A DNA stretch of 64,000 nucleotides, from the NCBI GenBank assembly GCA_038890745.1, contig JAWAFD010000002.1, forward strand, positions 163,327 to 227,326, given 5' to 3'. Both the position numbers and the translations under genes were made by a program. Origin of the DNA: Candidatus Anstonellales archaeon. Lineage in GTDB: Archaea > Micrarchaeota > Micrarchaeia > Anstonellales > J096. Below the pieces are notes generated by a model that saw only the letters and a program-made list of their open reading frames with translations, was not told the origin of the DNA and made no database searches. Positions 15,983 through 48,234 of this stretch are shown here, piece after piece. Positions within the stretch are counted from its first letter, which is position 1. Every line of letters begins with the position of its first letter.

Positions 15983-17545
15983 ATGAAAAGCCTACCTCTT
16001 TTCTTGATCGGCTTTATGTTTCTTCTCCCCTCCCTGTCTGCTCAGGTTATTACAGAAGGCGGAAATGTAACAGAGGTTAATCTGAATGTTACAGAATTCC
16101 CCACGAGCCGATGGGCTGGGATTGTTGGGTGGATGAACCATTCCGCAACCCCTAATCCTGACCTTTCCATATATGATATAAACATCCCATCATCCGGTAT
16201 ATACACCGCCTGGCCAGAGGGAAACTACTATGACATGCCCCTCATTGTTACACGGCTTTCTGTGAAACCAGACCCCGCGTATTTTCAAACTCCGGTTCTG
16301 AGCGATTTTCTTGAATACGGGATGTTCTGGAACTTTACTGTTTTTAACGGGTGGAGCTTTTCCATCGCAGACAGCCCGAACGCAACCCTCTGCAACCCAT
16401 GTACGTATACAACATGCGAAATCCTATACCTCTCAATCCCGTGCGTATACATAAACCTTGCGCAGGATTTTCAGATGAAGGTTTTGAAATTTAGCAATGG
16501 AACGGATGTTGAGCCAATATTCATATGCAACATCTCAAACGGAACCGGTTACAATGGAACGGTTTATGAGTTTGAGTACCTTGTTCCTGCAAAAGAGGTT
16601 TACTCATTCTACATCTATCCGCAGGAATGCAACATCACTGTTTACATAGATGGTGTGCAGACAACCGTTTTCCCAAATACAGCTAATGTTTATGACCTCC
16701 GTGCGGTTGTAAGGCACAGAAACCTTTCAATTGCCCAGAACGCAACCGTTTATTTGGTTGAAGAGAACGGGAGGAACATTCTCCTCCCCATCCTCGGTTT
16801 AGGAAAAGAATACAAAGAGGTCTCTGCGATGAAAACAAACTCAACCGGAGAGGTTAGGTACGCGGCAGCACCAACAAGATACAACATTCCAGATTCCTAT
16901 GGCTACCGAATCTATCTTCTCTCCCTAGACCCCTACTGCATCCAAAACCTCTCGATTGCCGATTACTCCTCAATCTCTCCCCGCTACCGTTCTTCCCTCA
17001 TAGACAATTCCTACTCCAGCCAAGTAAAAAGCTCTGTTCAGAATATGAACGCGCTTGCCTCCACAACAACAAAATGGATAACCCAGCAGAAAACAAAGGA
17101 GCATTACATAAACGCAACAACCTCTGGCTATGCAAATACAAGCACCCTAAAAGTTGGTGCGCCGAACAAAATAAACATAACCCTCCGCGATGGAGGAAAT
17201 ATTGTAGAAGGCGAGCTTAGGATAAGCGATAGCGATGGTTACATAATTGTTGCCCCCCTCCAGCCAGAGAAAATTTTCTACTCAAACAACGCAACCTTCT
17301 CAACATACGAAGAGTTCACCATCATCCCTACACGCTACAACAATAACGCAAATTTCACGATAAAAGTTTTTTACAACTACATGAATGTTGCAAATGTTAC
17401 ATTCACATACGATGAGCTTCTTGAAGACCCGCAGCCATCAGACCCTACCATGGACCCAGCAACCCACTCCGCTTTTTCAGCCGGCATCCAGAACATAAAC
17501 ATCGTTCTTATAAACATGGGACGGAGCATCTCAACCGTTCCATGA
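15983..17545 (+). CDS. secreted, sequon-rich surface protein; its N-terminal ~190 aa carry the shared WAGFYGN-type module
   Basis: The signal peptide is MKSLPLFLIGFMFLLPSLSA. It is followed by QVITEGGNVTEVNLNVTEFPTSRWAGIVGW ... IFICNIS ... YEFEYLVPAKEVYSFYIYPQ. There are many N-X-S/T sites. Confidence 0.75.
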   Translation: MKSLPLFLIGFMFLLPSLSAQVITEGGNVTEVNLNVTEFPTSRWAGIVGWMNHSATPNPDLSIYDINIPSSGIYTAWPEGNYYDMPLIVTRLSVKPDPAYFQTPVLSDFLEYGMFWNFTVFNGWSFSIADSPNATLCNPCTYTTCEILYLSIPCVYINLAQDFQMKVLKFSNGTDVEPIFICNISNGTGYNGTVYEFEYLVPAKEVYSFYIYPQECNITVYIDGVQTTVFPNTANVYDLRAVVRHRNLSIAQNATVYLVEENGRNILLPILGLGKEYKEVSAMKTNSTGEVRYAAAPTRYNIPDSYGYRIYLLSLDPYCIQNLSIADYSSISPRYRSSLIDNSYSSQVKSSVQNMNALASTTTKWITQQKTKEHYINATTSGYANTSTLKVGAPNKINITLRDGGNIVEGELRISDSDGYIIVAPLQPEKIFYSNNATFSTYEEFTIIPTRYNNNANFTIKVFYNYMNVANVTFTYDELLEDPQPSDPTMDPATHSAFSAGIQNINIVLINMGRSISTVP

Positions 17546-17558
17546 GCAAGGTGATAAA

Positions 17559-19304
17559 ATGAAAAAATTAATTTTGTTTTTTGTTTTTCTTCTAATCACA
17601 GCCACCGCGTCTTCAAAATATTATCTTTTAGACGGTGCGGACCTTACATACACAATAAATAATGATGGAACAGTCCATGTTACAGAAAGAATAACGTATG
17701 AGCTTAATGGATGTTTCAAAGAGTTGTATCTGGAAAAACCAACCGACCTTATAATTACAAACGCGCGCGGGTACTGCGAAAATGCGAAATGCACATTCAG
17801 AATAGATGAGCCAAGTGTCTCTATTTCCGGCTACAGAGAGCTGATTCTTTCGCTGGATTCCGGCGGATGCGACAACAGGGTAACCGCTGTTTTTGATTAC
17901 GATATCTATGCCATAAAAATTTACAAAGACACTGCTCAGTTTTACTATAAACTTTGGGGCGACCATTGGGATTCTCCAACCCCTCTAATCGCAACAATAA
18001 ACCTTCCAGGACCCACCGCCCAAACAAAATATTTCGTTCATTCTTTTTCGGATTACGGTGTGGATTCCGCAGGAAGTTCTATTCAAATCTCTGCGTATCA
18101 ACCCGCAAATCAATACCTTGAAATAAACCTTCTCATGCCATTGGAATGGTTTGAAGACCGCGAAAGCAGTATCTACTACCATGATTACAAACATTCAAAA
18201 TCAGATATACTAAAAATAGAGGAACAGCAAATGAATGAGCAGAAATTCTGGAAATCCATTGCTTGTTTTGTCTTTTTCTTTTCCATTCTACTTGTGCTCG
18301 TTCCGTTTTTCACCTTCCCACTCCTTTACTATTTTTTCGGAACAGAGTACTCACCGGAGCAGGTTGGGTATTCTGGGGAGTATGAGCGCGAGCCTCCCTC
18401 TCCCAATCCACCAGCAGAAGCACCGTTTTTTATAGAAGCCCAATTCTCTTCAGCATCCCTGCCCGCAACCATCATGCACCTGATTTACAAAGGATATTTG
18501 GATATTATAGAAGATAAGACAAAAAACGATATTCTTCTTGTTCCTGGCAAAGGAAAAGGCGAACTTAAAGAGTACGAGAAATCCCTTCTTGATTACATGC
18601 TATCAAAGATGGAAAACAAAAAGCTCAGCATGAAAAAGTTCCGCGATAGCGTTACCTCTTCCTATGCTTTTTACGCATGGTTTGAAAAATGGAAGAGCAA
18701 TGTTGAGAGAACCGTTGATATTGAAAAATACGCCGAGTACAAAGGGTATAACATTGCGAAATGGGTTTTCGGTACATTTATTTTAATAGATATAGTTATT
18801 TTCTTTATTTCCACTTTCGTCCTTTCATCAAATCCGTTTGCGGTTGAAGCATCCATATTCCTTTCTTTTGGAGCAATGTTTGGTGGTATAGTATCATTCT
18901 TACTTGCTGCCGTCGCCGGAGGAAAGAAAATATGGTTTGGAAGATGGAAAAAGGAAGGAAGAGTTCTTAATCTGAAATGGAGCAATTTCAAAAAATATCT
19001 TAGCGATTTCACGCTGCTTAAAGAGCATCCTCCGAGTTCGGTTAAACTATGGGACTATTACATGAGCTATGCTGTTGCTTTTGGTGTTGCTGAAAAAACG
19101 CTTAAAGCAATGAAGGTTTCTGTTCCAGAAAGAGAGCTTCGCACGAGCCGGCTCTATCCACTCTACCATCAACCGGTTTATTTCAGCACCATGAGAAGCT
19201 CTTTCATACCTTCCTACTCCCCTCCCTCCCGCTCCTCAGGTGGATATGGAAGCATAGGTGGGTTTGGGGGAGGTTTTGGTGGCGGAGGCGGTGGTGCGCG
19301 GTAA
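17559..19304 (+). CDS. DUF2207-like membrane protein with a Gly-rich C-terminal tail
   Basis: It has a signal peptide, an N-terminal YTINNDGTVHVTERITYELNG pattern, several TM helices in the central and C-terminal part, and the tail SGGYGSIGGFGGGFGGGGGGAR, which is typical of this family. Confidence 0.65.
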   Translation: MKKLILFFVFLLITATASSKYYLLDGADLTYTINNDGTVHVTERITYELNGCFKELYLEKPTDLIITNARGYCENAKCTFRIDEPSVSISGYRELILSLDSGGCDNRVTAVFDYDIYAIKIYKDTAQFYYKLWGDHWDSPTPLIATINLPGPTAQTKYFVHSFSDYGVDSAGSSIQISAYQPANQYLEINLLMPLEWFEDRESSIYYHDYKHSKSDILKIEEQQMNEQKFWKSIACFVFFFSILLVLVPFFTFPLLYYFFGTEYSPEQVGYSGEYEREPPSPNPPAEAPFFIEAQFSSASLPATIMHLIYKGYLDIIEDKTKNDILLVPGKGKGELKEYEKSLLDYMLSKMENKKLSMKKFRDSVTSSYAFYAWFEKWKSNVERTVDIEKYAEYKGYNIAKWVFGTFILIDIVIFFISTFVLSSNPFAVEASIFLSFGAMFGGIVSFLLAAVAGGKKIWFGRWKKEGRVLNLKWSNFKKYLSDFTLLKEHPPSSVKLWDYYMSYAVAFGVAEKTLKAMKVSVPERELRTSRLYPLYHQPVYFSTMRSSFIPSYSPPSRSSGGYGSIGGFGGGFGGGGGGAR

Positions 19305-19359
19305 GCGAAAGGTTTAAATCCATTTCTTTTCAATTCCCGCTAGAAATGGGGGAGAAAAT

Positions 19360-19731: not shown

Positions 19732-19742
19732 TCTCCAATCCG

Positions 19743-19780
19743 TTTGTTTTTCTTTTTTATTTTGATCTCTTTTTCTTTTC
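19743..19780 (+). terminator. T-rich archaeal terminator-like tract
   Basis: TTTGTTTTTCTTTTTTATTTTGATCTCTTTTTCTTTTC lies directly after the stop at 19731. Confidence 0.45.
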
Positions 19781-19828
19781 AAAAAACAAAAACCAATTTT
19801 TATAAACTTTCCCTTCAAATTGTTAGCG

Positions 19829-21514: not shown

Positions 21515-21518
21515 TAGG

Positions 21519-23393: not shown

Positions 23394-23444
23394 AGTTCTG
23401 CTAAAAGGGAAAGATTTTTATATTTTTTTCCCTATTAATTGTAC

Positions 23445-24743
23445 ATGAATTTTGAGGAGGTGAAGGAGTATCTTCTGGATTTTCAGAAAAGAGAAATGCC
23501 TGAGATGGTGGAGAGAGAGCTTAGGGTCGATGGTTCCGGAAGGATAGTTTCAATAATAGGACCAAGAAGGGCCGGTAAAACATTTTTTATGTACCAGAAA
23601 ATGAAGGAGCTTATAAATTCCGGAAAGAAAAAAAGCTCCATACTTTACCTAAACTTTGAAGACCCGCGGCTTGTTGGAGTGAGTTTCAAAGACATCAAAG
23701 AGATAGTTAAATTACACTGGCAGCTTTATCCGGATTCGACGAATGAGCAATTATACATTTTTGTAGATGAACCGCAAAATGTTGAAGGATGGGAGGTTGC
23801 AGTAAGGGGGCTGCATGATGATGGTTTTGTTGTTTTTCTGAGCGGCTCAAGTTCTAAACTATTAAGCAGAGAAATAGCAACCTCTCTACGCGGCCGGACG
23901 ATCTCTTATACTCTCCTCCCATTTTCTTTTAGAGAGTTTATGAGAATGAAAAAAGTTTCTTTTGATACCAGTAGACTTGGCTCTAAAGAAAAGGCACTGC
24001 TAAATTCCCTCTTCGAGGAATATGTCGTGTTTGGCGGGTTTCCTGAGGTTATAAAAGCAGAAAAGAAAGAAGAAAAGGAAAGAGTACTGAGCGAATACTT
24101 CGATCTGGTTGTTTACCGCGATATTGTTGAACGATACAAGGTGAAAAACACCGCGCTCGTTAAATGGTTGATAAAGTCAACTCTTTCTTCTTTTTCAAAG
24201 GAGCTTAGTATCCATAAACTTTATCTCAATTTGAGATCTCAGGGGCTAAGCTTAAGCAAGAATACGCTGTATTCATATTTTTCGATGCTTGTAGACTCTC
24301 TTTTTGTTTTTCCAGTTTTCAGGTTTTCTTATTCAATAAGAAAAAGAGAGCTTTCTAAAGCAAAGGTTTATGCATGCGATGTTGGGTTCACAAAGCTTGT
24401 TGAGATCTCTCCAGAAAGAGGAAGGAAAATGGAGAATATTGTTTTCTTGGAACTTATGCGAAGAAAAAAACCTTTGGAAGAGATTTTTTATTGGAAAAAT
24501 CCTCAGAATAAAGAAGTCGATTTTGTCGTTAGAGAAGGAAGTAGGACAAAAAAACTCATTCAGGTTTGTTCTAACATTAGTGATATGGAAGTGAAAAAAA
24601 GAGAGGTGGGTGCTTTAATAAAGGCATCTGAAGAGTTGAGATGCAGTGATCTATCCATCATAACCGATAGATATACAGGGCAAGAGAGAGTAAAAAGAAA
24701 AAAAATAAGTTTTGTTTCCCTGCCGGAGTGGTTGCTTTCATAG
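23445..24743 (+). CDS. orphan AAA-type ATPase (COG1373-like: P-loop domain plus DUF4143-like C-terminal domain)
   Basis: Walker A is IIGPRRAGKTF and Walker B is LYIFVDEPQ. The C-terminal ..KEVDFVV..KKLIQV.. pattern fits the family. Confidence 0.75.
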   Translation: MNFEEVKEYLLDFQKREMPEMVERELRVDGSGRIVSIIGPRRAGKTFFMYQKMKELINSGKKKSSILYLNFEDPRLVGVSFKDIKEIVKLHWQLYPDSTNEQLYIFVDEPQNVEGWEVAVRGLHDDGFVVFLSGSSSKLLSREIATSLRGRTISYTLLPFSFREFMRMKKVSFDTSRLGSKEKALLNSLFEEYVVFGGFPEVIKAEKKEEKERVLSEYFDLVVYRDIVERYKVKNTALVKWLIKSTLSSFSKELSIHKLYLNLRSQGLSLSKNTLYSYFSMLVDSLFVFPVFRFSYSIRKRELSKAKVYACDVGFTKLVEISPERGRKMENIVFLELMRRKKPLEEIFYWKNPQNKEVDFVVREGSRTKKLIQVCSNISDMEVKKREVGALIKASEELRCSDLSIITDRYTGQERVKRKKISFVSLPEWLLS

Positions 24744-24777
24744 TTAATCTTTTAAACAGTTCTGTACATACTTGGTT

Positions 24778-27660: not shown

Positions 27661-27682
27661 TTTATGGTAGACATTTCAGCAG

Positions 27683-28449: not shown

Positions 28450-28503
28450 GTCGAAAAAATGAACAAAAATATTTGAATTCTGTCCAAAATTTCGACAACT
28501 TTT
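28450..28503. repeat. 54-bp direct repeat, left copy (GTCGAAAAAATGAACAAAAATATTTGAATTCTGTCCAAAATTTCGACAACTTTT)
   Basis: It is perfectly identical to 29741-29794. Its ends form a 7-bp inverted repeat (GTCGAAA / TTTCGAC). Confidence 0.95.
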
Positions 28504-28529
28504 TAAACCTTTCCCCATCCAAATCTCTC

Positions 28530-37600: not shown

Positions 37601-40600
37601 AATACAGCATATAACAACTCATGGTATGGTTTCCACCTTTCCTCCAGCTCCAACAACACCCTCTCCAACAACACTGCCTACAGCAACTCTTACTACGGTT
37701 TCCACCTTTACTTCAGCTCCAACAACACCCTCTCCAACAACACTGCATATAATAACAATATTTATGGAATTTATCTTTATCAGAATGCAGACAACAACAC
37801 AATTGTCAATAACACAATATATAACAATTCAATTTATCAACTACTTATTAATGAAACCTATCCTTCTTATGATAACAAAATATACAACAACATCTTCAAC
37901 GCTTCAGCGGGCCAAGGAGTAGTCTACGATTCAGGAACAAACTATTGGAACATTTCCTATGACTGCACAGGAACAAACATAATAGGTGGAGACTGCATAG
38001 GAGGAAACTTCTACTCTAACTACACAGGAGTGGATGATGGTTCAGGCGCAACCTATCCTCATAATATCTATGGAGATGGGATAGGAGACAATCCAGATGA
38101 CTACTATATCTATGGAGGAAGCAATGTTGACTATCTGCCATTAACGAACAACCAAACATTGTGCTTCTATGCTGATACCTCAAACACCGTATATACTTTA
38201 ACAAGAAATCTCTATGGAAACAAATCAGATGGAAACTGTATTACCATAGTTGATTGGACTACAAACATTACAATAGACTGCAATGGGTATAATATTACTG
38301 GTTGGGGTGTAGGAAAGGGCATATTCTCTGCCTATTCAAGCCACAATACTATAAAGAACTGCAACATAAGAAACTATACCTATGCGATGGACTTAAGGGT
38401 AGGACAAAACATTTCAGTTTTCAACAATAACATTACAAACAATACAAATGGAATTGCATTGATTGTAGACATAAAACATTCAAGGCTTTACAATAACTAT
38501 TTCTATGATAACACTGGAAGCAGTTTTTACATGGTATATGGTTGCGATAATGTAAGTTTTTACAACAATACGATTGAAAAAAGTGGTGGTTGGGCTATTT
38601 CTCTCAGGGATACTACTACAAATTCAAGAATAGAAAACAACACTATTTTTAATGGAGATAATGTTGGTATTGGTCTTTATCCCAGCGACACTCTAAACAA
38701 TACAATAAAAGGAAATAGCATATATAACCAAGGTTCATATGGTATATATCTTAGTTCTGGCACTAACAATAACACAATTTCAGATAATATTGTTTATAAC
38801 ACTACAAACTACCAAATTGCTATATCTTCTTCTAGCGACAACCTTATCTACAACAACATCTTCAACGCTTCAGCGGGCCAAGGAGTAGTCTACGATTCAG
38901 GAACAAACTATTGGAACATTTCCTATGACTGCACAGGAACAAACATAATAGGTGGAGACTGCATAGGAGGAAACTTCTACTCTAACTACACAGGAGTGGA
39001 TGATGGTTCAGGCGCAACCTATCCTCATAATATCTATGGAGATGGGATAGGAGACAATCCACCAAACTATTCTATATACGGAGGAAGTAACTGGGATTAT
39101 TTACCACTTACCAATAACATAACTTATGCAAGATGCTTTTATGCAAACATTTCAAACACTGTTTATACGCTATCAGGAAATCTCTATGGAAACAAATCAG
39201 ACAGAATCTGCATTACAATAAATGCTTCAAACATTACAATAGATTGCAATGGATATAATATTACTGGCAACCACTCGCTTACTGAAAACACTATAGGAAT
39301 AGGAAGCTATGTTGGATGGGAAAATGTTACGATACAAGGCTGTCATGTGAGTAATTATACATACGGCGTATATGCGTATTCGTTTAATAACACGCTAATT
39401 GATGAACTGAATTCTATCAGAAATCATTTTGGAATTTACCTCAATCAAACAACGAACTCAAACATTACAAACAGCAAGATAGAAGTTTATAATGAAACCG
39501 CATGGAGTAGAGGAATCTATCTAGTAAATTCAAGCGGAATAAGAATTTCATCTTCTCATATAAACCGAACAGGTTTAACCTCTGCGCCATGGGCGATTGG
39601 AATTATGCCGTGCGCTACAAACGATACTATAATTGAAAGTTCAAACTTTACAGATAGACTAACAAGGTCTATATTTGTAAGCATATGCAGAGAAGTCGAC
39701 GGGACAGAATTCCAAGCACCGACCTATAATCTTACAATAAAAGATAATCATTTCTGGAATACAGAAACTGTTATAGCCCTATGGGTTAATTATAACACTT
39801 CAATAATCAATAACACAATTGAGTATTACAGAGGATATGGAATTGTTTCTGGGTATTTAGGTCTGCCAGGTGAATATTGGGATTTGCTCATAGAGAATAA
39901 TACAATAAGGAACGCTACTAATTGTCTAGATGACCCATCCTACTCAGGCCATATGACCGGGATATACATAGATACAAACAGCGGAGGATGGACGGTTAGG
40001 GGAAACAGAATAGAGTACATGCCTACATTGGGAATAGATTTGGATGGAGTTGGAGGGTATTCTTATGATATGCTTTTTGAAAATAATGTGTTCAATCATA
40101 CTGGAGAGAATGATTATGGAGCGGGATGTAATCCAACTCCAAATATGGGTGGCGTTTATTTTGGAGGGATTGAAAATTCAACAGTGCAGAACAATATTGT
40201 TGAGAATTTTGGTTCATCGATTGGAATAAATTTTTGGTGGAGGGAAAACCAAAATGTTTTGGTTCAGAATAATACTGTTTTCAATGGGAATGCAACGGGA
40301 ATTGGAGGGTCTGGAACTCAGAATAACATAACAGTTCGGAATAATACTGTTAGTTTTGCCCGAGCAGGTATTGGATTCAGTTCTACAAGCAATTCAGCTT
40401 TTTATAATAACACAGTACACGATAATACTAAAGAAGGTATCGCTATTTCAAACGGGTATAATAATACATTGCAGGACAATCTTGCCTATGCGAATATGTA
40501 CGGCATTTCGTTGAACAATGTTGTTAACCATACTTTGTTGAATAACAATATGACCAACAACCGATATAACTTCTATATAGAAGGTTCCAGTGTTCCACAC

Positions 40601-43504
40601 TTTGTGCATAATATAACTACAGACAATATAGTTAGAGATACGGTTCTTGATTCTTCTGACAAATATATATATTATTATGTCAGGAATGTGACTGGGGACG
40701 GTTTGTATGATACTACAGAGCCAATACCTACAAATGTTGGTTTTATTGGAGTTGTTAACTCATCAGATTTCTTAGTTGAAAATGTTTCCCTGCACAATAA
40801 CTCCCATGGGTTGTTATCTGTTCTTGCTAACAATGTAACTGCAAATAATGCTACATTTTACTATGAATACATAGGAGCATATCTGCTTTATTCAAGTAAC
40901 CATAATATAACGAACTTAAATTCTTCTTCTAATGGTGCAGGTGGATTTAGATTATACTATTCGGATAAAAATAATATAACGGATTCAGAGATAAAAAATA
41001 ATGGCTTGTTTGGCGTTGATTTAAGATACACAAACAATACAATAGTCGAAAACAATCAGATTCACAATAATTCGTACTACGGTTTTAGAGGTTATGCTTC
41101 TTCCTATAGTAATAAAATTATTAACAATACGATAGGGTCGTTCCATAATATCAGCATTTATCTAAACAATGCGCCCTATACACTTATAGAGAACAATACA
41201 ATTTATGAAAGTAACATTGATGGAATACATCTATTCATGAACTCTAATTGCAACATAATCAACAATTCCATTACTTCAAACACACAATATGGTGTTAGCA
41301 TCCATTACCAGTCTTCTAATAATACAATACTCTACAATACTATAACAAATAATGGCTACTCAGGACTCTACATCTTGATATCTGTAAACAACACTATTGC
41401 AGGTAATACTATTTCTGACAACACCCAAAATGGAATATATTTATTTGGGTATGCCAATGAAAACAATATAACAAACAATACTATCTCGGACAACTTTTTC
41501 AATGGAATAAGGATAGAAGCTGGGTGTAGCAACAACCTCATCTACAACAACATCCTCAACAATACCTATAATACATATGACGATGGCACTAACTATTGGA
41601 ACTATTCCTACTGCCCAGGCGGGCCTAACATAATCGGTGGACAATGCATAGGTGGAAACTACTATTCTGATTATGATGGGATAGATGATGGAAGCGGCTC
41701 CCCACCCATTCATAATATTGCAGGAGATGGAATAGGAGATAATCCGGACCAGTATGCGATAGGTGGAGGAAGCAACATTGATTACATGCCTTTGACAAAT
41801 AACCAACTAGGAATGAATTGCATGTATATAAATTCAAACACAAGCCTTCTTGCGAACTTGGTTGGAAACAAATCAGATAGGGCGTGCATTACGTTTAATG
41901 CTTCAAATATCTACTTAAACTGCTCCGGTTATAATATCACAGGAAATGTCTATGATCCTGAAAACAAAACATACGCAATAATGACAAACGGATTTGAAAA
42001 CATAAGCATAATAAACTGCCCAAACCTAACCAACTATTCTTTTGGAATATATGTTAATGGTACAAAAAATGCAACGATAAATAATGTAACCTCTTACAAA
42101 AATACCGATAGCGGGATAGGAATAGTAGACAACAGCAGCCAGATAGAAATATCAAATACAACCCTTCCTTTCAACACGGAAAATGGAATATTCATAAACT
42201 CCTCTTCCCAAGTGAACGTTTACTCAACAGAGATATACAACAATCCCTACTCAACCCTATTCAATGTAGGGATATACTCTCTAAACTCTTCCAGAATTTT
42301 AATCTCAAATGCTTCAATATACAACCATAGCACCTATGGAATTTTGGCTTACGACACGTCACATATCAGCATTTCTGACTCCTACTCGATATTCAACCAA
42401 ATTGCAGGAATGTATCTTAATGCAGGGAATAACCTTACGATGCAAAACAGCAACTTCTCAAACAATACAATATACGGTATAAGACTTAATGCTTTCGAAA
42501 ACATTACAGGAAACAATATCACAATACACGGAACCAGAGGGGATGAGGCATTTTTAGCAGACTATTCCTACAATGCAACCATCTCAAACTCTTCAATAAG
42601 CTTTAACTATCTTAACGCTATACGATTATTCACTTCTGCAAATTTCACATTCAATAATATCACAGCAAACAATAATACAAGAGGGATCTACATAAACGAC
42701 TATACAAACGGAACAAGAATACTTAACTCTAACATAAGCTTCAACAGTGATAAAGGAGTGTTTTTCACACAAACAACAGATAATAATAGAATGGAAAACA
42801 GCTATATTTGCTTCAATACCCAAAAGGATATAGATAATCAGGACGGAACAGATAACAACGGCTCATTGAACACATGCGACACATACTATCAGTGGAAGGA
42901 TGATGAACTGCCAGATGGATGCGCCATGACATGCACTTCTATATGGCATTATTTCTATGGAAATATTACTGGTTTGATTTTGCTTGGAACAAACTGGACA
43001 GAGCCAAAATTCATGTCCAACTGGACTCCTGCAATAGTGCACATGTATGTATTCCCAGAAGGAAATACAATAAGCTGGTTGGAACTTCAGGCATTAGGAA
43101 GAAAGGCAGATAATACAACAGCAAGCAATGATTTTGAAGAGGCGGACATAGCTTTGGGAATAGACCCTGCATTAGTGGATAGCATAAACAAAACATTCAG
43201 CATAGATGGAACACTTCCAATAGAGAACACGACATATAGGGTATGGGGTAGGGATATTGCAAACATTTCCATCGCAAACTCAACGGATAACAAGAATTTC
43301 AAGACAGGTATTTTGTGGGACACGAGCGATGGGGGAACAGAATTTACTTCTGCAGAGCATCAGGATTTGGTGTTTATGACAAATATTACATGGGACGGAG
43401 AAGGAAAATGGGGAACATATGATTATGAAATAAGAGTGCCTTCCCAGTTTGCCACCTATAATGGAGGAGCAGGTAGGGTTATAATTTATCTAGAGGTTCA
43501 ATAA
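31631..43504 (+). CDS. giant (3957 aa) secreted multi-module beta-helix surface protein ending in the WAGFYGN-type module
   Basis: A single uninterrupted ORF. It has an N-terminal hydrophobic segment (KKTAVALLVAIALVFALT), an NITEN low-complexity region, and four ~150-aa modules that each end in a C-x6-C..WE motif. Successive PbH1-type beta-helix blocks are then separated by four cap motifs: GGNFYSNYTG.DDGSGATYPHNI.GDGIGDNP...DYLPLTN in three copies, and a divergent fourth copy GGNYYSDYDGIDDGSGSPPIHNIAGDGIGDNP. The C-terminus reads ..IWHYFYGNITGLILLG...DLVFMTNI...YDYEIRVP...RVIIYLEVQ. The start is either GTG 31631 (1-nt overlap with the upstream stop) or ATG 31640. Confidence 0.85.
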   Translation: MVEMNKKTAVALLVAIALVFALTSEYSISIDRSEYYVGEAVNITVTMPLKVYAVKLYITLPSNETEETPAIRCRTGLCLYQYFPDQPGHYIVGLFDRNISVEFDVLRNENETAPPLINITPTLPRLSYYDERTNLTFFYYLIPTEEGYGDLIIENITPHLPALVLNNFSLNSSLFIHAYELNISENQTILKIKNYSQNISENISTEATNITENLTENITENTSEEIALEITETKNTTEENFSEIINENNTGLNETENITENLTEIESETEIRNLYNVIFVNLSGTNFSYAEYYILLEYDTLLSCVNFTNETCALWEKANSTQDGIFAILNSTSDFLVAGQLNISYPLDISENISLNVSEENISEINITPLEDEVYKQLEIVFIDMGFDYYEDFWTYDSVEEEVQELLIQNAFFVVYDEKGEGRIPEYIISMVDEKHANVGIFKPIQSVPVITFYSLYLDKELKMSAYDINDSAFVLDTYYLFYPYGIVYAEKKGEYLYSCEDFSYDYTCRTGFKELNYTLQKGKAVFNITKEQKLFLWTEKPLTIPGGEQNATELLPSININISDTRGKQKNYTYEILEYTGRYASVTFYFSPEERIHSITLYNLSLSGEPFILLDEFSNSILLVDLSNSDFDYSVVIAKDYGGDLYKCKEFDKNYSCSGGWEKWPYFASGGYIVFKLLPEDPLFIQTINLSTVTTLNIIDPFGNPVNGSYEILDNSTGLDVQINFNSGQVLQLTIYDIPDDGYSHTIVVGDTFVNDSENNMTNTFVIDLSNISYNYSNVVARNSGGDLYKCSTFSSNFSCLSSWELYPYTNNGVNRSFNLTEGDPMFGYEKEGNISIFDITSCTAITTSGYHTLDNNLVGNTSNSIGGYYYCIAIRVSNVELNCQNYEIRGNSAGSTVGIIIYDPPLAINPLTNVTVRNCNVLNYSRNLMIDSALTTDHSQITIRDSRFNLSSGNSIRVEDCDDSNFTNLVVDRTSDGGILFLTDSTNNRVVNFTGYNSANFFIMDYSGSNNFTNITLRNGGWAGIWIRGVDNSIVDGFDIQNITESGGVVYGGIYVSSGGDNNIIRNGKIYDLVTYGIQVNGSYNNTITNVTIYNSTSESGIFIYEDTADNNKIYNSTIYRNADYGIYVNGADDLLIYNTNIENHTSGYEVYLYAPSSLVSVSNILIQNSRFVNNKSINTMGINAIYGSNITVDNSTFTGIYIGAYFNQSNTITIKNSTFLRNGKAGIFFDSTTSSSVLDNDINDTYWTSDDPGGIYLGFCDWNSVNFYKFEGGIILCYSNYTQISYNYLKGNGTCTDNCIANHNGCEAGIFTYNSKLNNITYNIFRNSGDNYDSLYFYSYDTNYWYNDQNGTDPLTGNNNVNDGIKLDNSRGFNISHSNFSNNREWGIFLTNSNDTYIYNNTASYNTNVGIRLASSANNTVIYNTAFKNQQGFRVEQLEAINNIFKDNTAYSNSYYGFYLYFSSNNTLSNNTAYSNSYYGFYLYFSSNNNTLSNNTAYSNSYYGFCLYFSSNNNILSNNTAYNNNIYGIYLYQNADNNTIVNNTIYNNSIYQLLINETYPSYDNKIYNNIFNASAGQGVVYDSGTNYWNTSYDCTGTNIIGGDCIGGNFYSNYTGADDGSGATYPHNIAGDGIGDNPDDYYIYGGSNIDYLPLTNLRTACFYADTSNTVYTLTRNLYGNKSDRICITINASNITIDCNGYNITGTYPYTGYTIGIGNYDSRNNVTIKNCYITNYTFGIYANLSNQYNITNNSLVANGKAGIFFDSTENSTIWDNDINDTYWTSDDPGGDYFQFCNWSAGNFSRFEGGIILCSSNYTQISYNYLKGNGTCGGGGPGCGSNHNGCEAGIFTYNSKLNNVTHNTFRNSGDNYDSLYFYSYDTNYWYNDQNGTDPLTGNKNVNDGIKLDHSRGFNISHSNFSNNYEWGIFFTWSNDSYIYNNTARYCVGSGGVGIRLARSANNTVIYNTAFKNQEGFRVDYSEAINNILKDNTAYNNSWYGFHLSSSSNNTLSNNTAYSNSYYGFHLYFSSNNTLSNNTAYNNNIYGIYLYQNADNNTIVNNTIYNNSIYQLLINETYPSYDNKIYNNIFNASAGQGVVYDSGTNYWNISYDCTGTNIIGGDCIGGNFYSNYTGVDDGSGATYPHNIYGDGIGDNPDDYYIYGGSNVDYLPLTNNQTLCFYADTSNTVYTLTRNLYGNKSDGNCITIVDWTTNITIDCNGYNITGWGVGKGIFSAYSSHNTIKNCNIRNYTYAMDLRVGQNISVFNNNITNNTNGIALIVDIKHSRLYNNYFYDNTGSSFYMVYGCDNVSFYNNTIEKSGGWAISLRDTTTNSRIENNTIFNGDNVGIGLYPSDTLNNTIKGNSIYNQGSYGIYLSSGTNNNTISDNIVYNTTNYQIAISSSSDNLIYNNIFNASAGQGVVYDSGTNYWNISYDCTGTNIIGGDCIGGNFYSNYTGVDDGSGATYPHNIYGDGIGDNPPNYSIYGGSNWDYLPLTNNITYARCFYANISNTVYTLSGNLYGNKSDRICITINASNITIDCNGYNITGNHSLTENTIGIGSYVGWENVTIQGCHVSNYTYGVYAYSFNNTLIDELNSIRNHFGIYLNQTTNSNITNSKIEVYNETAWSRGIYLVNSSGIRISSSHINRTGLTSAPWAIGIMPCATNDTIIESSNFTDRLTRSIFVSICREVDGTEFQAPTYNLTIKDNHFWNTETVIALWVNYNTSIINNTIEYYRGYGIVSGYLGLPGEYWDLLIENNTIRNATNCLDDPSYSGHMTGIYIDTNSGGWTVRGNRIEYMPTLGIDLDGVGGYSYDMLFENNVFNHTGENDYGAGCNPTPNMGGVYFGGIENSTVQNNIVENFGSSIGINFWWRENQNVLVQNNTVFNGNATGIGGSGTQNNITVRNNTVSFARAGIGFSSTSNSAFYNNTVHDNTKEGIAISNGYNNTLQDNLAYANMYGISLNNVVNHTLLNNNMTNNRYNFYIEGSSVPHFVHNITTDNIVRDTVLDSSDKYIYYYVRNVTGDGLYDTTEPIPTNVGFIGVVNSSDFLVENVSLHNNSHGLLSVLANNVTANNATFYYEYIGAYLLYSSNHNITNLNSSSNGAGGFRLYYSDKNNITDSEIKNNGLFGVDLRYTNNTIVENNQIHNNSYYGFRGYASSYSNKIINNTIGSFHNISIYLNNAPYTLIENNTIYESNIDGIHLFMNSNCNIINNSITSNTQYGVSIHYQSSNNTILYNTITNNGYSGLYILISVNNTIAGNTISDNTQNGIYLFGYANENNITNNTISDNFFNGIRIEAGCSNNLIYNNILNNTYNTYDDGTNYWNYSYCPGGPNIIGGQCIGGNYYSDYDGIDDGSGSPPIHNIAGDGIGDNPDQYAIGGGSNIDYMPLTNNQLGMNCMYINSNTSLLANLVGNKSDRACITFNASNIYLNCSGYNITGNVYDPENKTYAIMTNGFENISIINCPNLTNYSFGIYVNGTKNATINNVTSYKNTDSGIGIVDNSSQIEISNTTLPFNTENGIFINSSSQVNVYSTEIYNNPYSTLFNVGIYSLNSSRILISNASIYNHSTYGILAYDTSHISISDSYSIFNQIAGMYLNAGNNLTMQNSNFSNNTIYGIRLNAFENITGNNITIHGTRGDEAFLADYSYNATISNSSISFNYLNAIRLFTSANFTFNNITANNNTRGIYINDYTNGTRILNSNISFNSDKGVFFTQTTDNNRMENSYICFNTQKDIDNQDGTDNNGSLNTCDTYYQWKDDELPDGCAMTCTSIWHYFYGNITGLILLGTNWTEPKFMSNWTPAIVHMYVFPEGNTISWLELQALGRKADNTTASNDFEEADIALGIDPALVDSINKTFSIDGTLPIENTTYRVWGRDIANISIANSTDNKNFKTGILWDTSDGGTEFTSAEHQDLVFMTNITWDGEGKWGTYDYEIRVPSQFATYNGGAGRVIIYLEVQ
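32170..32445 (+). repeat. low-complexity N-I-T-E-N/S coding region (dense N-X-S/T sequons)
   Basis: NISENQTILKIKNYSQNISENISTEATNITENLTENITENTSEEIALEITETKNTTEENFSEIINENNTGLNETENITENLTEIESETE. Confidence 0.8.
35303..36904 (+). repeat. segmental duplication within the giant gene, copy A (period 1602 bp)
   Basis: AACGGAAAAGCAGG at 35303 recurs at 36905. Long runs of identical DNA (e.g. ..GATATAAACGATACCTATTGGACTTCTGATGACCCAGGAGGA.., ..TATACCCAAATTTCTTATAATTATTTAAAAGGAAATGGAACATGC..) alternate with divergent patches. Confidence 0.85.
35981..36200 (+). repeat. three near-identical 69/72-bp tandem units encoding beta-helix rungs (NTAYSNSYYGF(Y/C)LYFSSNN(N)(T/I)LSN)
   Basis: ACAGCATATAGCAACTCTTACTACGGTTTCT recurs at ~35984, 36053 and 36125. 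A related set lies in copy B (~37600-37740). Confidence 0.8.
36905..38300 (+). repeat. segmental duplication, copy B (diverges from copy A after ..IDCNGYNITG)
   Basis: See copy A. The cap-motif DNA AACAACATCTTCAACGCTTCAGCGGGCCAAGGAGTAGTCTACGATTCAGGAACAAACTATTGGAAC occurs at 36341, 37886 and 38852. Confidence 0.8.
38845..39290 (+). repeat. partial third copy of the cap/junction segment
   Basis: Near-identical DNA runs from NLIYNNIFNASAGQGVVYDSGTNYWNISYDCTGTNIIGGDCIGGNFYSNYTGVDDGSGATYPHNIYGDGIGDNP to ..ITIDCNGYNITGN. Confidence 0.8.
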
Positions 43505-43542
43505 ACGAAACCTTTATTATTCTTATCTCGGAATTCTTAACG

Positions 43543-46500
43543 ATGTCCATAAGGGTTTTGCGTTTTGCGTTTGCACTATTTCTACTTTTATCTATCTTCA
43601 ACGCTGTTGATCTGAGTACCTGCGGTTCTCTCTCTTCAAATACCTACTACGAAGTAACTCAAGACCTTAATACTGGAGATTCCCAGACACCATGCCTTGT
43701 TGCATACGGCGTGTCTAATGTTGTGGTAAATTTGAAAGGGTATTCTGTTAGAGGAATAAAAATACAAAACTCTGCAAATAACATTACAATAGAAAACGGT
43801 TCATTAGCTCTTCCCGGTAATTATTTCGGATCTTTTGCTTACCTTAAAATATATATCCGCGATTCTTCAAATATTACTATAAAAAACGTTTCCCACTATG
43901 CCTATTGTACATCCCCGGGATGTAGCGGCCCGGAGATAGCCAATTCAATGAATGTTTATTTCTACGAAGTTTCCTCCACCCTTCCATCTGATGCAAGAGG
44001 AGGCAACCCAAGCGTTTTTTTTGGTATTCAAAACACAACAAACGCTACATTTGAACGGCTTAAGTATTCTTTCCCGGACTCTCTCGGCCACTGCACAGCC
44101 TTGGCTTGGACAGCGATTCTTATAGATTCTTCGGGTTCTGGTGCTAAAAAATCAAACAATATTGTGATAAAACAATCAGAAATAACAGGTTCTTGCAATG
44201 GAATACTTTCATATACAGAAAATTTGACGCTGTATAACAATATTATAGATACATACGACGTACAGATATGGCCGAAATATTGCAATAACAACATCACGAG
44301 CAACATGGGAAAAAACTCGCTCTACCCGATTGTTTACATGGAGCACAACTCCTCCCAAACCTATTCTCCTGGGTCAGTTTCTCAGCTTATTTTCTGCAAT
44401 ATCTCGAATTTTCAGGTCACAGGCCCAACAGCAATATACGGAGGAATTCTTCTCGTTAACTCTTCGAACAATACATTTAACGGATTCTCAACAAACACGA
44501 CATACACGGGAATAGTTTTTGACAGGAGCAAAGACAACAAGTTCTATAATGGTGGAATGCATAATGGAGTTTATGGGGTTTTGTTCTATGCAACAGATGG
44601 TGTTGCGTCCACAGGCAACTCATTTGAAAATACCTCGTCCTCTAATATCACAGACCGGGTGTTTGGAGGATGCGGAGTAAGAGGAGAGTGCGTGTGCAAT
44701 TTTTCAGTAAAAAACGCCTCTTTGAATGGATTCCCTGCTTGGTTTAATACAACAACAAACGGAATTACTGTTTCGAATGTAAACCTAAATGAGCTTACTT
44801 TCTGCGATGTTGAAAACTCTACAGTGAGCAATGTCAATATAACAAACGGGACTGGCTTTTGGAGCTTTTCAAGCGCAAACATCTTAGTTGAAAACTCAAA
44901 CATTTCCAATGCTCATTATCATAATCTTTTCTCATACCTTGATGATAACATTACAATAAGAAACAGCGATTTAAGCTATTTCAGGGTTGATCCCTCAGCA
45001 CAATGGGCATACAGCCACTCTACTATGTTTTCGCGTTCTCAAAATATCACCGTCGAAAACATAACCTCATATGAAACGAACGGTTTCGCAGTTTATATCG
45101 GAACTAATGCAAATGTTTTCAACTCAAAAATCATAAACACAAAATCTGGCGGATGCTACTACTGCAGTTTTTCCCTTGGTTTTTCAGGGACGAACGCATG
45201 GGCAGAAAACAATACCGTAATTTCAGATGAAACCAATCTCTATGGTATTGTCCTTGGGATAGCGTATAATTATTTGGGCGGAAACATAACAGCAAGGAAT
45301 AATACGATAATGGGAAAATATGTCGGCATCGCATTGAGCAATCATCCAGGATATCCCCAGCCAAACAATAATATCGTGAACATTACGAGGAATCTAATCC
45401 AAAACTCTTCCTATGGGATTATGATAAACCCGAGCACAACAAACATTACAGAAATAAGCTTCAACAGAATAGAAAATAAGATCGCATCCCGTGGAAGTAC
45501 TGCATGCATGTACTCTGTCGGCTCTTCATACAGAGGAATGAATGTATCCATATTCAACAATACAATGTACAATGCAACATATGGCTACTATGCCTCGTAT
45601 GGGATAAGAGACCATATATTCAATAATACGATATGCAATGTAAATACAGTTTTCTACCTCTACCACTCAACAGAAATATACATAGGAAACAATTCTATAT
45701 GCGATGATATATACACCCCCATAGATATAGTGAGCGATAATTCGCAGGAGTGCGCGCATGGAGTTAATTTCACAGTAAACGAAACAAACCCAGTTTATTT
45801 CAGTAACATAGATGATGTTGTTTTTGAAAACAACGACAGCATTGCGCAGATATTCTTGTGTAATGTGAGTAGAGCGCGGGTGCAAAACATCACGATGAGA
45901 AGGGAAAATGCCCAGTATGGCGTATGGGCCGTCCTCACACGATATAGCAACATTACAGATTTTAGATGTTATAACATGAACTCAAATGTGTATTGTGTTT
46001 ATTTCAAGCATTTGGATTTTGAAAATAGAGTAAAGGATTCTATCATCGTGAACAATACATATGGCATAAGGATTTCTGAAAATTCAAACACCACGCATGT
46101 CTATAACAACACCTTTGAAAACAACACCTATTCAGTTTATTTGGAAGGATACCTAAACAATATTTCAACCAACTCTTTCAAAAACCCAAAATCTGAGGGT
46201 GTAGAAGTTTATCTTTATGCCCTAAATTCAAATAATAATACAATAAGTAATAACACATTTACACAGTTAACTAATGGGTATGCTTTTAAGATCGTATATA
46301 AGTCAGCCTCCGGGAATGTTTTTGAGTGGAACACTGTTAATGGCCCGGGTGAATACTATAGCCCGATTTGGATATCCGGCCAAAGTAATACATTCAGATT
46401 TAATACACTAAACGGCACAAAAACCAGCTCTGGTTTCCTAAACAGAGCAAACGGCTCTGTTTTTTACAACAACACAATAGAAAACTTCAGTGTCGGAATA

Positions 46501-48234
46501 TATAATGACTACCGGCCAGGATGGTATGCTGGGAACAATTCTCTCATATACCACAATTTCTTTAGAAATATTACAAACTATTATGTTTGGTGGGATTCGC
46601 ACCTTACAGTATTTTTAAACACTTCAGTTTCAGGGGTTGCGCAGGGGAATTATTATGACGACATTCTAGAGTATCAAATATACGATTCTGATGATAATAG
46701 CTACTGCGACTATGGAGACCAATACCCATACGGAAACCCGCCAACTGCAAAACTTCCTGCCACCCCGCCTTGGAAGGACTATGGACCCATAATCCTAGGA
46801 GGAATATACGATCATCCTAATGGAGAGAATGAATCCGCCTATTCAGCATTCTACCTCAACAAATACATCTATGATTTGGAAAGGCACTACACTACTTCCT
46901 TTATTCGCTATAACCACTCAACCCAAGGATTAAGACTTATGGTAAAAGGCCATTTCCATTTTGGGGACGTAAACATAAGCAATGCGAGCATATACACAGG
47001 TGCTTTGGAAACTGGCGGAAACTACACAGTTATAAACGCCACCTCTGCGGCGGGAATAAACGAAACCATCTCATTTTTTGTTCCAAACTTTTTGGACCAG
47101 GGGGTTTTTGTCTGCCCGAATGCAGAATCCCCGCAGGAGCTTACTTACAACTGCGAAGGATATACCTCTTTTGACATTACAGAATGCGAGGCAGGAACAA
47201 CAAAAAATGGAATAACAGTGAATTTAATAACTTTCCTAGGTCAGGAATACTACAACATTACGCATGCTCAAAAAAGGGGAGGGGCAGGGGAGGAGATAGG
47301 TGCGAACCTTACGATATGGGACACGAGCGATAACGAGACAATTTGCCCAGGAGAAAACATTACATTTTTTGCAAACTATTCAAACGCAACTTCTGGTGAG
47401 CCAATCCTGAATGCAGACTGCAACATAAGTTTTGAGGATGGGGTTTCTGCGATGATGTGGTACAACGACTCAAGTTTGCTTTATGAATACAACAGAAGCT
47501 TTGATAACCCAGGAATATACTACTACAATGTCACATGCAATGCGACCGATTATCCAACGAGGTTTAGAGAGGACCATGCACAGGTTTTTATATGCGGGGT
47601 GTATCTCTATGGAGTAAATGTTACGGTTATTAACATAAGCAAGTATAATTATACTTATGAGGTAGGGAGATATCCTCTTAGGCCAGGAAATATTACGAAC
47701 CTTAATATAGACATGAATGTTTCTACAGAGAAATGGGCAGGCTTCTATGGCAATATCAGCAATGGAACATACTTAGTTTTAGGGGATGCGGTAGGAAATT
47801 TTATGTATAAATGGCCATGGGGAGGGGAGGAAGGAAAGGGAAGGGTTGTGTGCACAAGCACAAACGGAAGTTTGTACTTCATCAACCTTACCGGTGCTCT
47901 TGGAAGCGAGATAGATACAGCATGGAATTTCCTTCCGAACGCGGCTGATTCTGGAACGAACACATTCAACCAGCAGTGCGACATTACTTTTGGCGCGTAT
48001 ACAATACAAAATGCTGCATGCAGGCCTACAGGGTATTGGAATTTCTACACCCGTGCCCTCAAAATCTATCCGTGGCTTGGTCATAAGGACCAGATGGTAT
48101 TCTGCACAAACATCACCTCTGCAACAAGCTTTGTGGATACTCCAGTTGATTTTGAGCTTATCGTTCCTACAGAATACGGAATGGGCAGCGGCCCTCCTTA
48201 TGAAATATACTATTTCTATGTATCCATAGAGTAA
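43543..48234 (+). CDS. giant (1563 aa) secreted beta-helix surface protein ending in the WAGFYGN-type module
   Basis: The signal peptide is MSIRVLRFAFALFLLLSIFNA. Asn-rich ~22-aa rungs run throughout. The C-terminus reads ..GNITNLNIDMNVSTEKWAGFYGNISNGTYLVLGDAVGNFMYKW...MVFCTNITS...VDFELIVPTE...YEIYYFYVSIE. Confidence 0.85.
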   Translation: MSIRVLRFAFALFLLLSIFNAVDLSTCGSLSSNTYYEVTQDLNTGDSQTPCLVAYGVSNVVVNLKGYSVRGIKIQNSANNITIENGSLALPGNYFGSFAYLKIYIRDSSNITIKNVSHYAYCTSPGCSGPEIANSMNVYFYEVSSTLPSDARGGNPSVFFGIQNTTNATFERLKYSFPDSLGHCTALAWTAILIDSSGSGAKKSNNIVIKQSEITGSCNGILSYTENLTLYNNIIDTYDVQIWPKYCNNNITSNMGKNSLYPIVYMEHNSSQTYSPGSVSQLIFCNISNFQVTGPTAIYGGILLVNSSNNTFNGFSTNTTYTGIVFDRSKDNKFYNGGMHNGVYGVLFYATDGVASTGNSFENTSSSNITDRVFGGCGVRGECVCNFSVKNASLNGFPAWFNTTTNGITVSNVNLNELTFCDVENSTVSNVNITNGTGFWSFSSANILVENSNISNAHYHNLFSYLDDNITIRNSDLSYFRVDPSAQWAYSHSTMFSRSQNITVENITSYETNGFAVYIGTNANVFNSKIINTKSGGCYYCSFSLGFSGTNAWAENNTVISDETNLYGIVLGIAYNYLGGNITARNNTIMGKYVGIALSNHPGYPQPNNNIVNITRNLIQNSSYGIMINPSTTNITEISFNRIENKIASRGSTACMYSVGSSYRGMNVSIFNNTMYNATYGYYASYGIRDHIFNNTICNVNTVFYLYHSTEIYIGNNSICDDIYTPIDIVSDNSQECAHGVNFTVNETNPVYFSNIDDVVFENNDSIAQIFLCNVSRARVQNITMRRENAQYGVWAVLTRYSNITDFRCYNMNSNVYCVYFKHLDFENRVKDSIIVNNTYGIRISENSNTTHVYNNTFENNTYSVYLEGYLNNISTNSFKNPKSEGVEVYLYALNSNNNTISNNTFTQLTNGYAFKIVYKSASGNVFEWNTVNGPGEYYSPIWISGQSNTFRFNTLNGTKTSSGFLNRANGSVFYNNTIENFSVGIYNDYRPGWYAGNNSLIYHNFFRNITNYYVWWDSHLTVFLNTSVSGVAQGNYYDDILEYQIYDSDDNSYCDYGDQYPYGNPPTAKLPATPPWKDYGPIILGGIYDHPNGENESAYSAFYLNKYIYDLERHYTTSFIRYNHSTQGLRLMVKGHFHFGDVNISNASIYTGALETGGNYTVINATSAAGINETISFFVPNFLDQGVFVCPNAESPQELTYNCEGYTSFDITECEAGTTKNGITVNLITFLGQEYYNITHAQKRGGAGEEIGANLTIWDTSDNETICPGENITFFANYSNATSGEPILNADCNISFEDGVSAMMWYNDSSLLYEYNRSFDNPGIYYYNVTCNATDYPTRFREDHAQVFICGVYLYGVNVTVINISKYNYTYEVGRYPLRPGNITNLNIDMNVSTEKWAGFYGNISNGTYLVLGDAVGNFMYKWPWGGEEGKGRVVCTSTNGSLYFINLTGALGSEIDTAWNFLPNAADSGTNTFNQQCDITFGAYTIQNAACRPTGYWNFYTRALKIYPWLGHKDQMVFCTNITSATSFVDTPVDFELIVPTEYGMGSGPPYEIYYFYVSIE

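Follow-up and report, generated by a model that had tools for sequence, protein, structure and literature searches.

The 64,000-nt stretch of DNA from a Candidatus Anstonellales archaeon analysed here (GenBank assembly GCA_038890745.1, contig JAWAFD010000002.1, positions 163,327 to 227,326 of the forward strand; hereafter the window) encodes four secreted proteins that share a module of about 200 residues, which is all-beta in its AlphaFold2 model. Our comparison of protein sequences and gene neighbourhoods suggests, with a probability of about 0.5, that this module serves non-covalent attachment to the cell surface and co-assembly. Five features, taken together, point to such a role: the fixed terminal position of the module, its interchangeable passengers, the export of its anchorless carriers by the Sec pathway, its linkage to a membrane protein family that we call A, and its display on a membrane-anchored stalk in some relatives.

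The module proteins were sorted into classes: M, stand-alone module; XM, passenger followed by the module; XM*, the same arrangement with a divergent module, M*; and MX, module followed by an extension. A designates the partner family. The features of the window are as follows, where A4 denotes a profile hidden Markov model (HMM) built from 117 stand-alone homologues and ORF an open reading frame.

15977/15983-17545, + strand: p522 (class MX), from the ORF call; signal peptide, module directly after it, then an extension of about 300 aa
16037-16615, + strand: module copy of p522; A4 HMM, two colinear pieces
27683/27692-28396, + strand: p237 (class M); Sec-type signal peptide, linker of about 25 aa, module
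~27761-28393, + strand: module copy of p237; profile match
29874-31631, + strand: p585 (class A), between p237 and p3957; signal peptide, C-terminal transmembrane (TM) helix
31631-43504, + strand: p3957 (class XM*), giant secreted beta-helix/NosD protein with a divergent module at its extreme C-terminus
~42905-43501, + strand: module copy of p3957, divergent M* subfamily; A4 HMM and hhalign
43543-48234, + strand: p1563 (class XM), secreted beta-helix protein with a canonical module at its extreme C-terminus
~47617-48231, + strand: module copy of p1563, canonical type; BLASTP and HMM

The start of p237 was placed at a GTG (27683) by the ORF tool and at an ATG (27692) in the identical database cluster P0001. 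From 15.9 to 48.3 kb, the + strand carries clustered genes for secreted proteins of glycoprotein type. The four module proteins each carry an N-terminal signal peptide and 30-61 N-x-S/T sequons per 1000 residues (242 N-glycosylation sequons in p3957), and no TM anchor was predicted in p522, p237, p3957 or p1563. The two giants, p3957 and p1563, had been called anchorless in an earlier reading of the DNA made from its letters only (the sequence-only reading), and this description holds: both have a signal peptide and neither has a TM helix. They are right-handed beta-helix/NosD proteins, and Pfam matched Beta_helix in 19 stretches and NosD in 15 stretches of p3957. The G+C content across the p3957 gene (window 32000-44000) was 0.34-0.36, as against about 0.41 in most of the remaining window, and BLAST revealed near-identical internal repeats at residues ~1585-1614, 2100-2129 and 2422-2451 of this protein. 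Relatives of the window genes were found at 77-94% identity on contigs of Micrarchaeota/Micrarchaeales metagenome-assembled genomes (MAGs). The 11 close homologues of p237, one p237 homologue being labelled Ca. Anstonellales, were all 211-234 aa long and had no Pfam domain.

The homology of all four module copies is statistically solid. BLASTP aligned p237 with the C-terminus of p1563 (31% over 203 aa, E 3e-14) and with the N-terminus of p522 (E 1e-6), and its matches to p3957 were weak but colinear. An HMM built from the 11 closest stand-alone homologues matched p1563 (3e-32) and, in two colinear pieces, p522 (2e-10); it did not match p3957, which was found by deeper and reciprocal profiles. 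The A4 profile, in which p237 is the sole window sequence and from which the other three window segments were left out, was run against the complete six-frame ORF set of the window (422 ORFs) and matched residues ~1359-1562 of p1563 (E 2.6e-44), residues ~3767-3942 of p3957 (E 9.4e-12) and, again in two colinear pieces, p522 (E 3.4e-11). The window contains exactly four module copies; no other ORF scored below E 1, and the best E among 1000 composition-preserving shuffles was 0.23. In the reciprocal test, profile A3, which represents p3957-type C-termini and was built from p3957's own set of 22 homologues (often located downstream of CARDB), matched p237 at E 1.8e-5. The hhalign comparisons of A3 with A2, a profile of the stand-alone family (98.0%, E 1.6e-13, 160 columns), and with A4 (99.1%, E 3.7e-19, 175 columns) agreed with these results.

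The sequence-only reading had aligned the four segments by eye, and its alignment is borne out by the A4 profile, BLASTP, hhalign and the shuffles, including the HMM-HMM comparison that it had proposed as a check (A3 against A4); our refined coordinates differ from its own by only a few codons. The shared landmarks it listed can be seen both in the translations and in an alignment of 14 sequences, except that the TEGGN landmark is barely recognisable in p3957. The M* module of this protein retains the W..FYGN, LVF.TNIT and YDYEIRVP landmarks together with the terminal strand, but its TEGGN strand has diverged; the first landmark, TEGGNVT.VN, is unrecognisable by eye and was aligned by hhalign, in diverged form, with an 'NGS..E.NE.NN' stretch.

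An exhaustive HMMER search of 1.84 billion representatives yielded 1328 clusters (50% identity) at a threshold of E<=1e-3, of which 1006 also reached E<=1e-10. From GTDB species genomes we recovered 49 module loci, which belong to Micrarchaeota, Woesearchaeota, Nanoarchaeota, Aenigmatarchaeota and Nanohaloarchaea (all DPANN) and to several Methanosarcinales/Methanosarcinaceae MAGs; the Methanosarcinales contigs with modules include some of 0.1-1.1 Mb. A complete XM*-M-A-M-A cassette (L009, QNCM01000043.1) lies on a contig of 15 kb whose bin is assigned to Ca. Makaraimicrobium thalassicum (Omnitrophota, Bacteria), and a few family members (proteins P0014 and P0182) are labelled 'Bacteroidota' or 'bacterium'. 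These bacterial-labelled members are probably mis-binned DPANN contigs, or the module cassette may have been transferred to bacteria.

By far the commonest form is class M, which consists of a signal peptide, a linker of about 25 aa and the module (210-260 aa in total). In class XM proteins, which range from 350 to 5626 aa, a variable passenger stands between the signal peptide and the module, which occupies the extreme C-terminus. The module ended 0-4 residues before the stop codon in 276 of 277 full-length matches. Passengers include Beta_helix/NosD, Laminin_G_3, F5/8 type C (discoidin), FBA, sialidase-type lectin, beta-propeller and CARDB domains, and the module of the large proteins retains the N-terminal linker of the stand-alone proteins (HMM start at about 20-25). 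A constant domain beneath variable, unrelated passengers is what characterises domains for anchoring or assembly. The module might instead be a beta-domain of general use in the construction of archaeal envelope proteins, comparable to immunoglobulin (Ig)-like or CARDB spacers, whose copies share ancestry and no role and were gathered by local duplication. Surface-protein islands do often collect paralogous domains, and CARDB and beta-helix repeats are also common to several window genes; however, spacers are internal and tandem, whereas the module is single and terminal in nearly every full-length match. Since, in addition, its paralogues are old and positionally conserved rather than recent duplicates, and its link to A spans both DPANN and Methanosarcinales (see below), we consider shared ancestry without a shared role very improbable.

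In p522 and its class, the module is N-terminal, not C-terminal, a point that goes beyond the sequence-only reading. Among the 49 loci, class MX occurred only in Micrarchaeota, where CARDB, Cys-rich DUF7107, Ig-like and CarboxypepD_reg-like domains form a stalk behind the module; in at least seven Micrarchaeota loci, this stalk terminates with a TM helix and a basic tail. In such an anchored protein the module lies at the tip, farthest from the membrane, where soluble module proteins could join it. Immediately downstream of p522 is a gene for a DUF2207 membrane protein (17559-19304, + strand). Only the two closest relatives (L046 and L047) retain the pairing of these two genes; in two other loci (L005 and L032), a CARDB protein (a p564 homologue) takes the place downstream of the p522 homologue.

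The protein to which module proteins are most likely anchored, judging from its topology and gene context, is p585, which the sequence-only reading did not mention. It comprises a signal peptide, an alpha/beta region of about 300 aa with three weak CWB2-like repeats, two Ig-like domains, a TM helix (residues 540-568) and a basic tail. Every A protein has this plan: a signal peptide, a conserved N-terminus of the form '(V)xNSxDWxDVYS', about 300 aa of alpha/beta sequence and a pair of Ig-like domains, with a TM helix and a basic tail at the C-terminal end. The two Ig-like domains are mutually homologous (hhalign 98.6%, E 5.5e-16). Homologues of A were present in 31 of the 49 module loci and adjoined a module gene in 25 of these 31. 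All-against-all clustering of the ORFs of the loci showed that the module and A are the only two families broadly common across them, in DPANN and Methanosarcinales alike. The Pfam family CW_binding_2 (PF04122) matched 10 of 32 A proteins weakly (E<=0.1), always at repeat 2 (residues about 106-172), and the A protein of a single locus (L002) exceeded the gathering score (27.4 bits vs 24.9). Searches of A against PDB sequences returned no Cwp or SlpA chain; the sole matches, at E about 0.1, were to de novo designs of Rossmann-like type.

The structure of the module was predicted with AlphaFold2 as a monomer. The 117-sequence alignment gave a model of about 10 strands with a predicted local distance difference test score (pLDDT) of 83.6 and a predicted template modelling score of 0.78; a first model from a 13-sequence alignment was poor (pLDDT 66). 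Conserved positions include G53 and N54 (in TEGGN.T), T67, W70 and G75 (in T..WAGFYGN), W95, D141, T146, Y227, F229 and E232, and the terminus is conserved as (V/A/L)-E-L-x. The sequon N54-x-T/S is retained in about 93% of the 117 sequences and a second, N76-x-S/T, in about 70%. The most conserved motif, TEGGN.T, and the linker that precedes it were predicted to have no regular secondary structure in the monomer.

Our searches support the statement of the sequence-only reading that the module is not a named domain. No Pfam-A or NCBIfam family matched at E<=0.01 over the module in p237, p522, p3957 or p1563, and about 300 listed homologues, all named 'hypothetical protein', had no precomputed Pfam domain over it. 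Profiles A2, A3 and A4 gave no meaningful match to PDB sequences; a match of A2 to VopV (9p1i_c, E 4e-13) is an artefact in which the low-complexity linker (profile positions 26-51) aligns with a repetitive protein, and it contains no significant stretch. The AlphaFold and Foldseek comparison that had been suggested for the module produced the model with pLDDT 83.6 and matched it to no described carbohydrate-binding or jelly-roll family: the best E was 0.9 in PDB (template modelling score <0.25) and 0.1 in BFVD (viral structures). Foldseek may have missed a distant beta-sandwich relationship. C-terminal sorting signals (PGF-CTERM, the C-terminal domain (CTD) of the type IX secretion system (T9SS), LPXTG) were not matched in NCBIfam or Pfam, and the module C-termini are polar and aromatic and form no TM helix. 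Neither Pfam nor the PDB matches of Foldseek contained TasA/camelysin (Peptidase_M73, PF12389), the archaeal bundling pilin or the cannula protein CanA, and Foldseek found no chaperone-usher pilin in PDB with the fold of the module. We discarded an S-layer protein reading because no match of the S_layer_N (PF05123) or MSTP/DUF1608 type was found in the module proteins or A. A type IV pilin reading was also discarded because the signal peptides are Sec-type rather than class III (a loose class III motif occurred in only 10 of 117) and a T2SSE-type ATPase is not a conserved neighbour. Our literature searches found no published description of the module. It is a new domain family with no recognised fold relative, which probably performs a job of a known kind, surface attachment or assembly, in a new way.

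These data also bear on whether the module binds carbohydrate, either the S-layer or N-glycans of its own cell or a glycan of the host envelope, so that attachment would be of protein to glycan and A a mere neighbour with a related surface role. Its invariant aromatic and glycine motif (T..WAGFYGN, with W95, D141 and T146) is of a kind common in sugar-binding sites, its predicted fold is all-beta, and the bacterial analogues SLH and CWB2 anchor proteins through glycopolymers; A itself has a CWB2-like repeat. Moreover, the marginal top Foldseek matches of the low-confidence first model were exclusively concanavalin/glucanase jelly-rolls (E about 1, probability <0.1). However, this jelly-roll lead was abandoned when the matches vanished with the better model from 117 sequences. 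No carbohydrate-binding module or lectin family was matched by sequence, many XM proteins already have lectin domains at the opposite end, and a lectin would need neither a strict C-terminal position nor tight synteny with one membrane protein. We therefore regard this explanation as rather unlikely.

The genomic arrangement of module genes was examined across the 49 loci. At least two module genes were present in 33 loci and at least three in 11, with a maximum of six. The recurrent cassette is [M]n - A - [XM*], as in the Methanosarcinaceae loci L014, L025 and L039; the order M - A - XM* recurs in Methanosarcinaceae, Woesearchaeota, Nanohaloarchaea and Micrarchaeota, and L009 alternates M-A-M-A. 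Micrarchaeota cassettes contain XM*, MX, A and M (L017, L037, L048). The order in the window is MX (p522), further downstream M (p237), an AAA_14 gene (p422), A (p585), XM* (p3957) and XM (p1563). The AAA_14 ATPase gene p422 (28473-29741, + strand) splits p237 from p585, whose counterparts are adjacent in most other loci; its homologues were found in only one of the loci (L048), and it has the look of an inserted gene, perhaps of a mobile or defence type, rather than of a part of the system. A second AAA_14 ATPase gene in the surface-protein cluster, p434 (23439-24743, + strand), also has DUF4143.

In four Woesearchaeota and Nanoarchaeota loci (L013, L034, L035 and L036), the stand-alone genes are of three types, each with its best matches in other genomes rather than in its own locus, and they are arranged in the order alpha-beta-gamma, followed by a secreted protein of about 320 aa and A. 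The age of these paralogue types and their conserved order point to non-redundant subunits of one structure rather than to recent duplication. The secreted protein of about 320 aa is rich in Cys and sequons (L013 1893-2837, L034 5200-6162, L035 9525-10493, L036 4165-5148), and no Pfam family matched it. Genes for ArsR/MarR-type and HTH_23 regulators lie scattered between the M genes of Woesearchaeota and Nanoarchaeota loci. The clustering of ORFs across the 49 loci revealed no conserved ATPase, protease, sortase, chaperone or usher.

Tandem arrays of two to six small secreted paralogues in conserved order raise the possibility of a fibre or pilus-like heteropolymer, in which M proteins would polymerise head-to-tail as major and minor subunits, passenger-module proteins would be tip or side adhesins, and A (and MX) would form the membrane base; this would be a self-assembling analogue of chaperone-usher, TasA, archaeal bundling or cannula-type fibres. 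The architecture of an adhesin domain joined to a subunit domain is FimH-like, such fibres need no ATPase and none is conserved, and the lack of regular secondary structure predicted for TEGGN.T and its linker in the monomer is as expected of a segment that pairs with a neighbouring subunit. However, Foldseek found no pilin, TasA, AbpA or cannula likeness in PDB (best E about 1), and the linker retained in the large proteins means that there is no tip subunit missing a donor segment. The lack of a conserved chaperone, usher or sortase in the 49 loci also speaks against a fibre, and no filament has been linked to module genes. These points make a fibre unlikely in our judgement.

The extreme C-terminal position and conserved terminus of the module are also what would be expected of an export, sorting or maturation tag, recognised by A, by a nearby type IV-secretion-type ATPase or by a MoxR-vWA system for the translocation, folding or handover of large passengers, as with the T9SS CTD. 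A T2SSE-type secretion/type IV filament ATPase of 718 aa is encoded at 7692-9848 (- strand) in the window, no more than ~8 kb from the module genes and next to a 607-aa protein without a Pfam match (5872-9848 region), and such ATPase genes also lie within ~8 kb of module genes in 5 of the 49 loci (L006, L021, L029, L046 and L047), too few for a conserved partner. Triplets of MoxR (AAA_3), DUF58 and vWA genes occur inside the cassette, between XM* and M genes, in three loci (L010 4943-7900, L011 3727-6661 and L015 1-2878); a MoxR/vWA context of this kind has been put forward before as a putative system for secretion or membrane remodelling in archaea (PMC5898192). However, the module is conserved together with neither ATPase system and has no linked protease or sortase, and the signal peptides of all its carriers are ordinary Sec ones. 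The commonest members consist of the module alone, with nothing to export, and in MX proteins it is N-terminal. An export tag is thus a distinctly improbable explanation.

Attachment and co-assembly, the role that we favour, could work as follows. Module proteins would be exported by Sec without an anchor of their own and would be retained at the cell surface because the module contacts the type-I membrane protein A (p585 in the window) and other module copies. The contact region of A would be its distal CWB2-like part, and modules may associate with one another, with A, or with both. In most Micrarchaeota, one module copy would in addition be displayed on the TM-anchored MX stalk. The stand-alone M paralogues may form the basic, constitutive part of the assembly, into which XM and XM* proteins would plug through their modules, such that their variable adhesin and lectin parts (beta-helix, LamG, discoidin and FBA) project outwards; in DPANN cells, the passengers plausibly point towards the host. 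The assembly may be a discrete complex, a fibre or a sheet, in which glycans on both conserved sequons may take part. The sequence-only reading had already suggested that the module serves anchoring or co-assembly, and this role fits the comparative data, namely the C-terminal position in 276 of 277 matches, the variable passengers, the gene clustering and the membrane-anchored relatives of p522. That interpretation is thus borne out in part, and A and the MX class extend it; the polymer or lattice of the small protein onto which, in its example, the giants might dock is hypothetical.

Several observations weigh against this interpretation. Its base is homology, terminal position, passengers, the clustering and order of paralogues, synteny with A and predicted topologies, from which the binding steps are inferred. 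No A gene was found within the recovered DNA in 18 of the 49 loci; many of these consist of a short contig or of XM genes that lie dispersed. The MX argument draws its strength from the TM helix present in most of the other MX proteins of Micrarchaeota, but p522 belongs to a shorter MX subclass without this helix. Likewise, p585 itself has no Pfam CWB2 match, and the similarity between the internal repeats of A (R1 with R2, R2 with R3) is weak (P about 6e-4). The distance matrices of M and A are correlated (Mantel r 0.60, 0 of 2000 permutations), a correlation that shared phylogeny could produce. Finally, the presence of up to five or six module paralogues in a locus would fit a polymer subunit or a secreted lectin as well.

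Among known systems, the CWB2/Cwp proteins of Clostridioides difficile offer one parallel: three CW_binding_2 repeats tether about 29 surface proteins with variable functional domains. As there, a constant region would attach variable passengers non-covalently, and A has at least one CWB2-like repeat; however, the CWB2-like repeats belong here to the membrane-anchored partner rather than to the displayed proteins, and the module is an unrelated all-beta domain. Archaea of the module-carrying lineages are not known to have a PSII-type wall polymer. The two-component archaeal envelopes of the SlaA/SlaB type, whose anchorless outer protein is held by a TM-anchored stalk protein, resemble the present system in that an anchorless secreted protein is encoded beside a type-I membrane protein with an extracellular stalk and no dedicated secretion machine is present, but our searches found no similarity in sequence or fold, and the module is common to several paralogues and dozens of passenger architectures. 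Other S-layer proteins have been reported from Micrarchaeota and Methanosarcinales (10.1101/2021.04.28.441871; 10.1101/2024.05.28.596244), and the published Micrarchaeota S-layer protein, of ~100 kDa and PF05123 type, is distinct (10.1101/2021.04.28.441871). Chaperone-usher pili with two-domain adhesins (FimH, a lectin domain joined to a pilin domain) and the self-assembling fibres of TasA, the archaeal bundling pilus and cannulae share with the module loci the operons of small secreted beta-sandwich paralogues together with an adhesin that ends in the same subunit domain; the differences are the lack here of a chaperone, an usher and a PDB fold match, and the N-terminal segment of the module that the large proteins retain. 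C-terminal sorting domains (T9SS CTD, PGF-CTERM/archaeosortase and LPXTG) have the same strict C-terminal position under variable passengers, but the module is ~200 aa long, has no hydrophobic tail, sorting motif or linked sortase or protease, and also occurs as a stand-alone protein and at the N-terminus (MX). Cohesin/dockerin-like docking is among the nearest functional analogues. The DPANN 'dark matter' cluster cls.004306 (NEQ255), a secreted protein found in 43 of 67 DPANN genomes beside Ig-like S-layer-type proteins (PMC6393860), is likewise secreted, DPANN-wide, uncharacterised and located in a surface-protein neighbourhood; it may overlap with M or A, a comparison made by description only.

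Two further genes of the window lie outside the glycoprotein cluster. Directly after it, a + strand gene (49212-53408) encodes a 1398-aa protein that is compositionally unlike its neighbours (no signal peptide, 2 sequons and 2 Cys), and it has no Pfam or NCBIfam match. On the - strand, the gene at 9910-11484 encodes a 524-aa protein with very strong pentatricopeptide (PPR) repeats (PF01535, E 4.8e-81, 7 stretches). Proteins of the PPR type typically belong to eukaryotes, and their presence in an archaeal genome is unusual.

In their natural state, DPANN archaea are attached to other cells, and their genomes code for many secreted proteins of huge size that carry adhesin-like domains. To our knowledge, it is an open question how these giant surface proteins stay on the cell, as most have no TM helix, lipobox or archaeosortase signal. 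The present findings place one unannotated module behind more than 1000 protein clusters and link it to one membrane-anchored partner, which provides a concrete and testable anchoring mechanism. More tentatively, the module and A might constitute an undescribed, archaea-specific display and assembly system with a fold unlike solved structures, which would assemble by itself after Sec export from several obligatory paralogous subunits and mount interchangeable giant adhesins in DPANN symbionts and Methanosarcinales; it could then be the missing anchoring mechanism for anchorless giants in DPANN-host contact. The A protein would extend CWB2-like repeats, which serve wall anchoring in Firmicutes, to archaeal membrane proteins. 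With a confident model that has no PDB or BFVD neighbour, the module is a good target for structural biology, and its C-terminal position makes it a sequence handle for cataloguing the surfaceome of uncultivated lineages, which is of relevance to research on the archaeal cell surface and on DPANN symbiosis.

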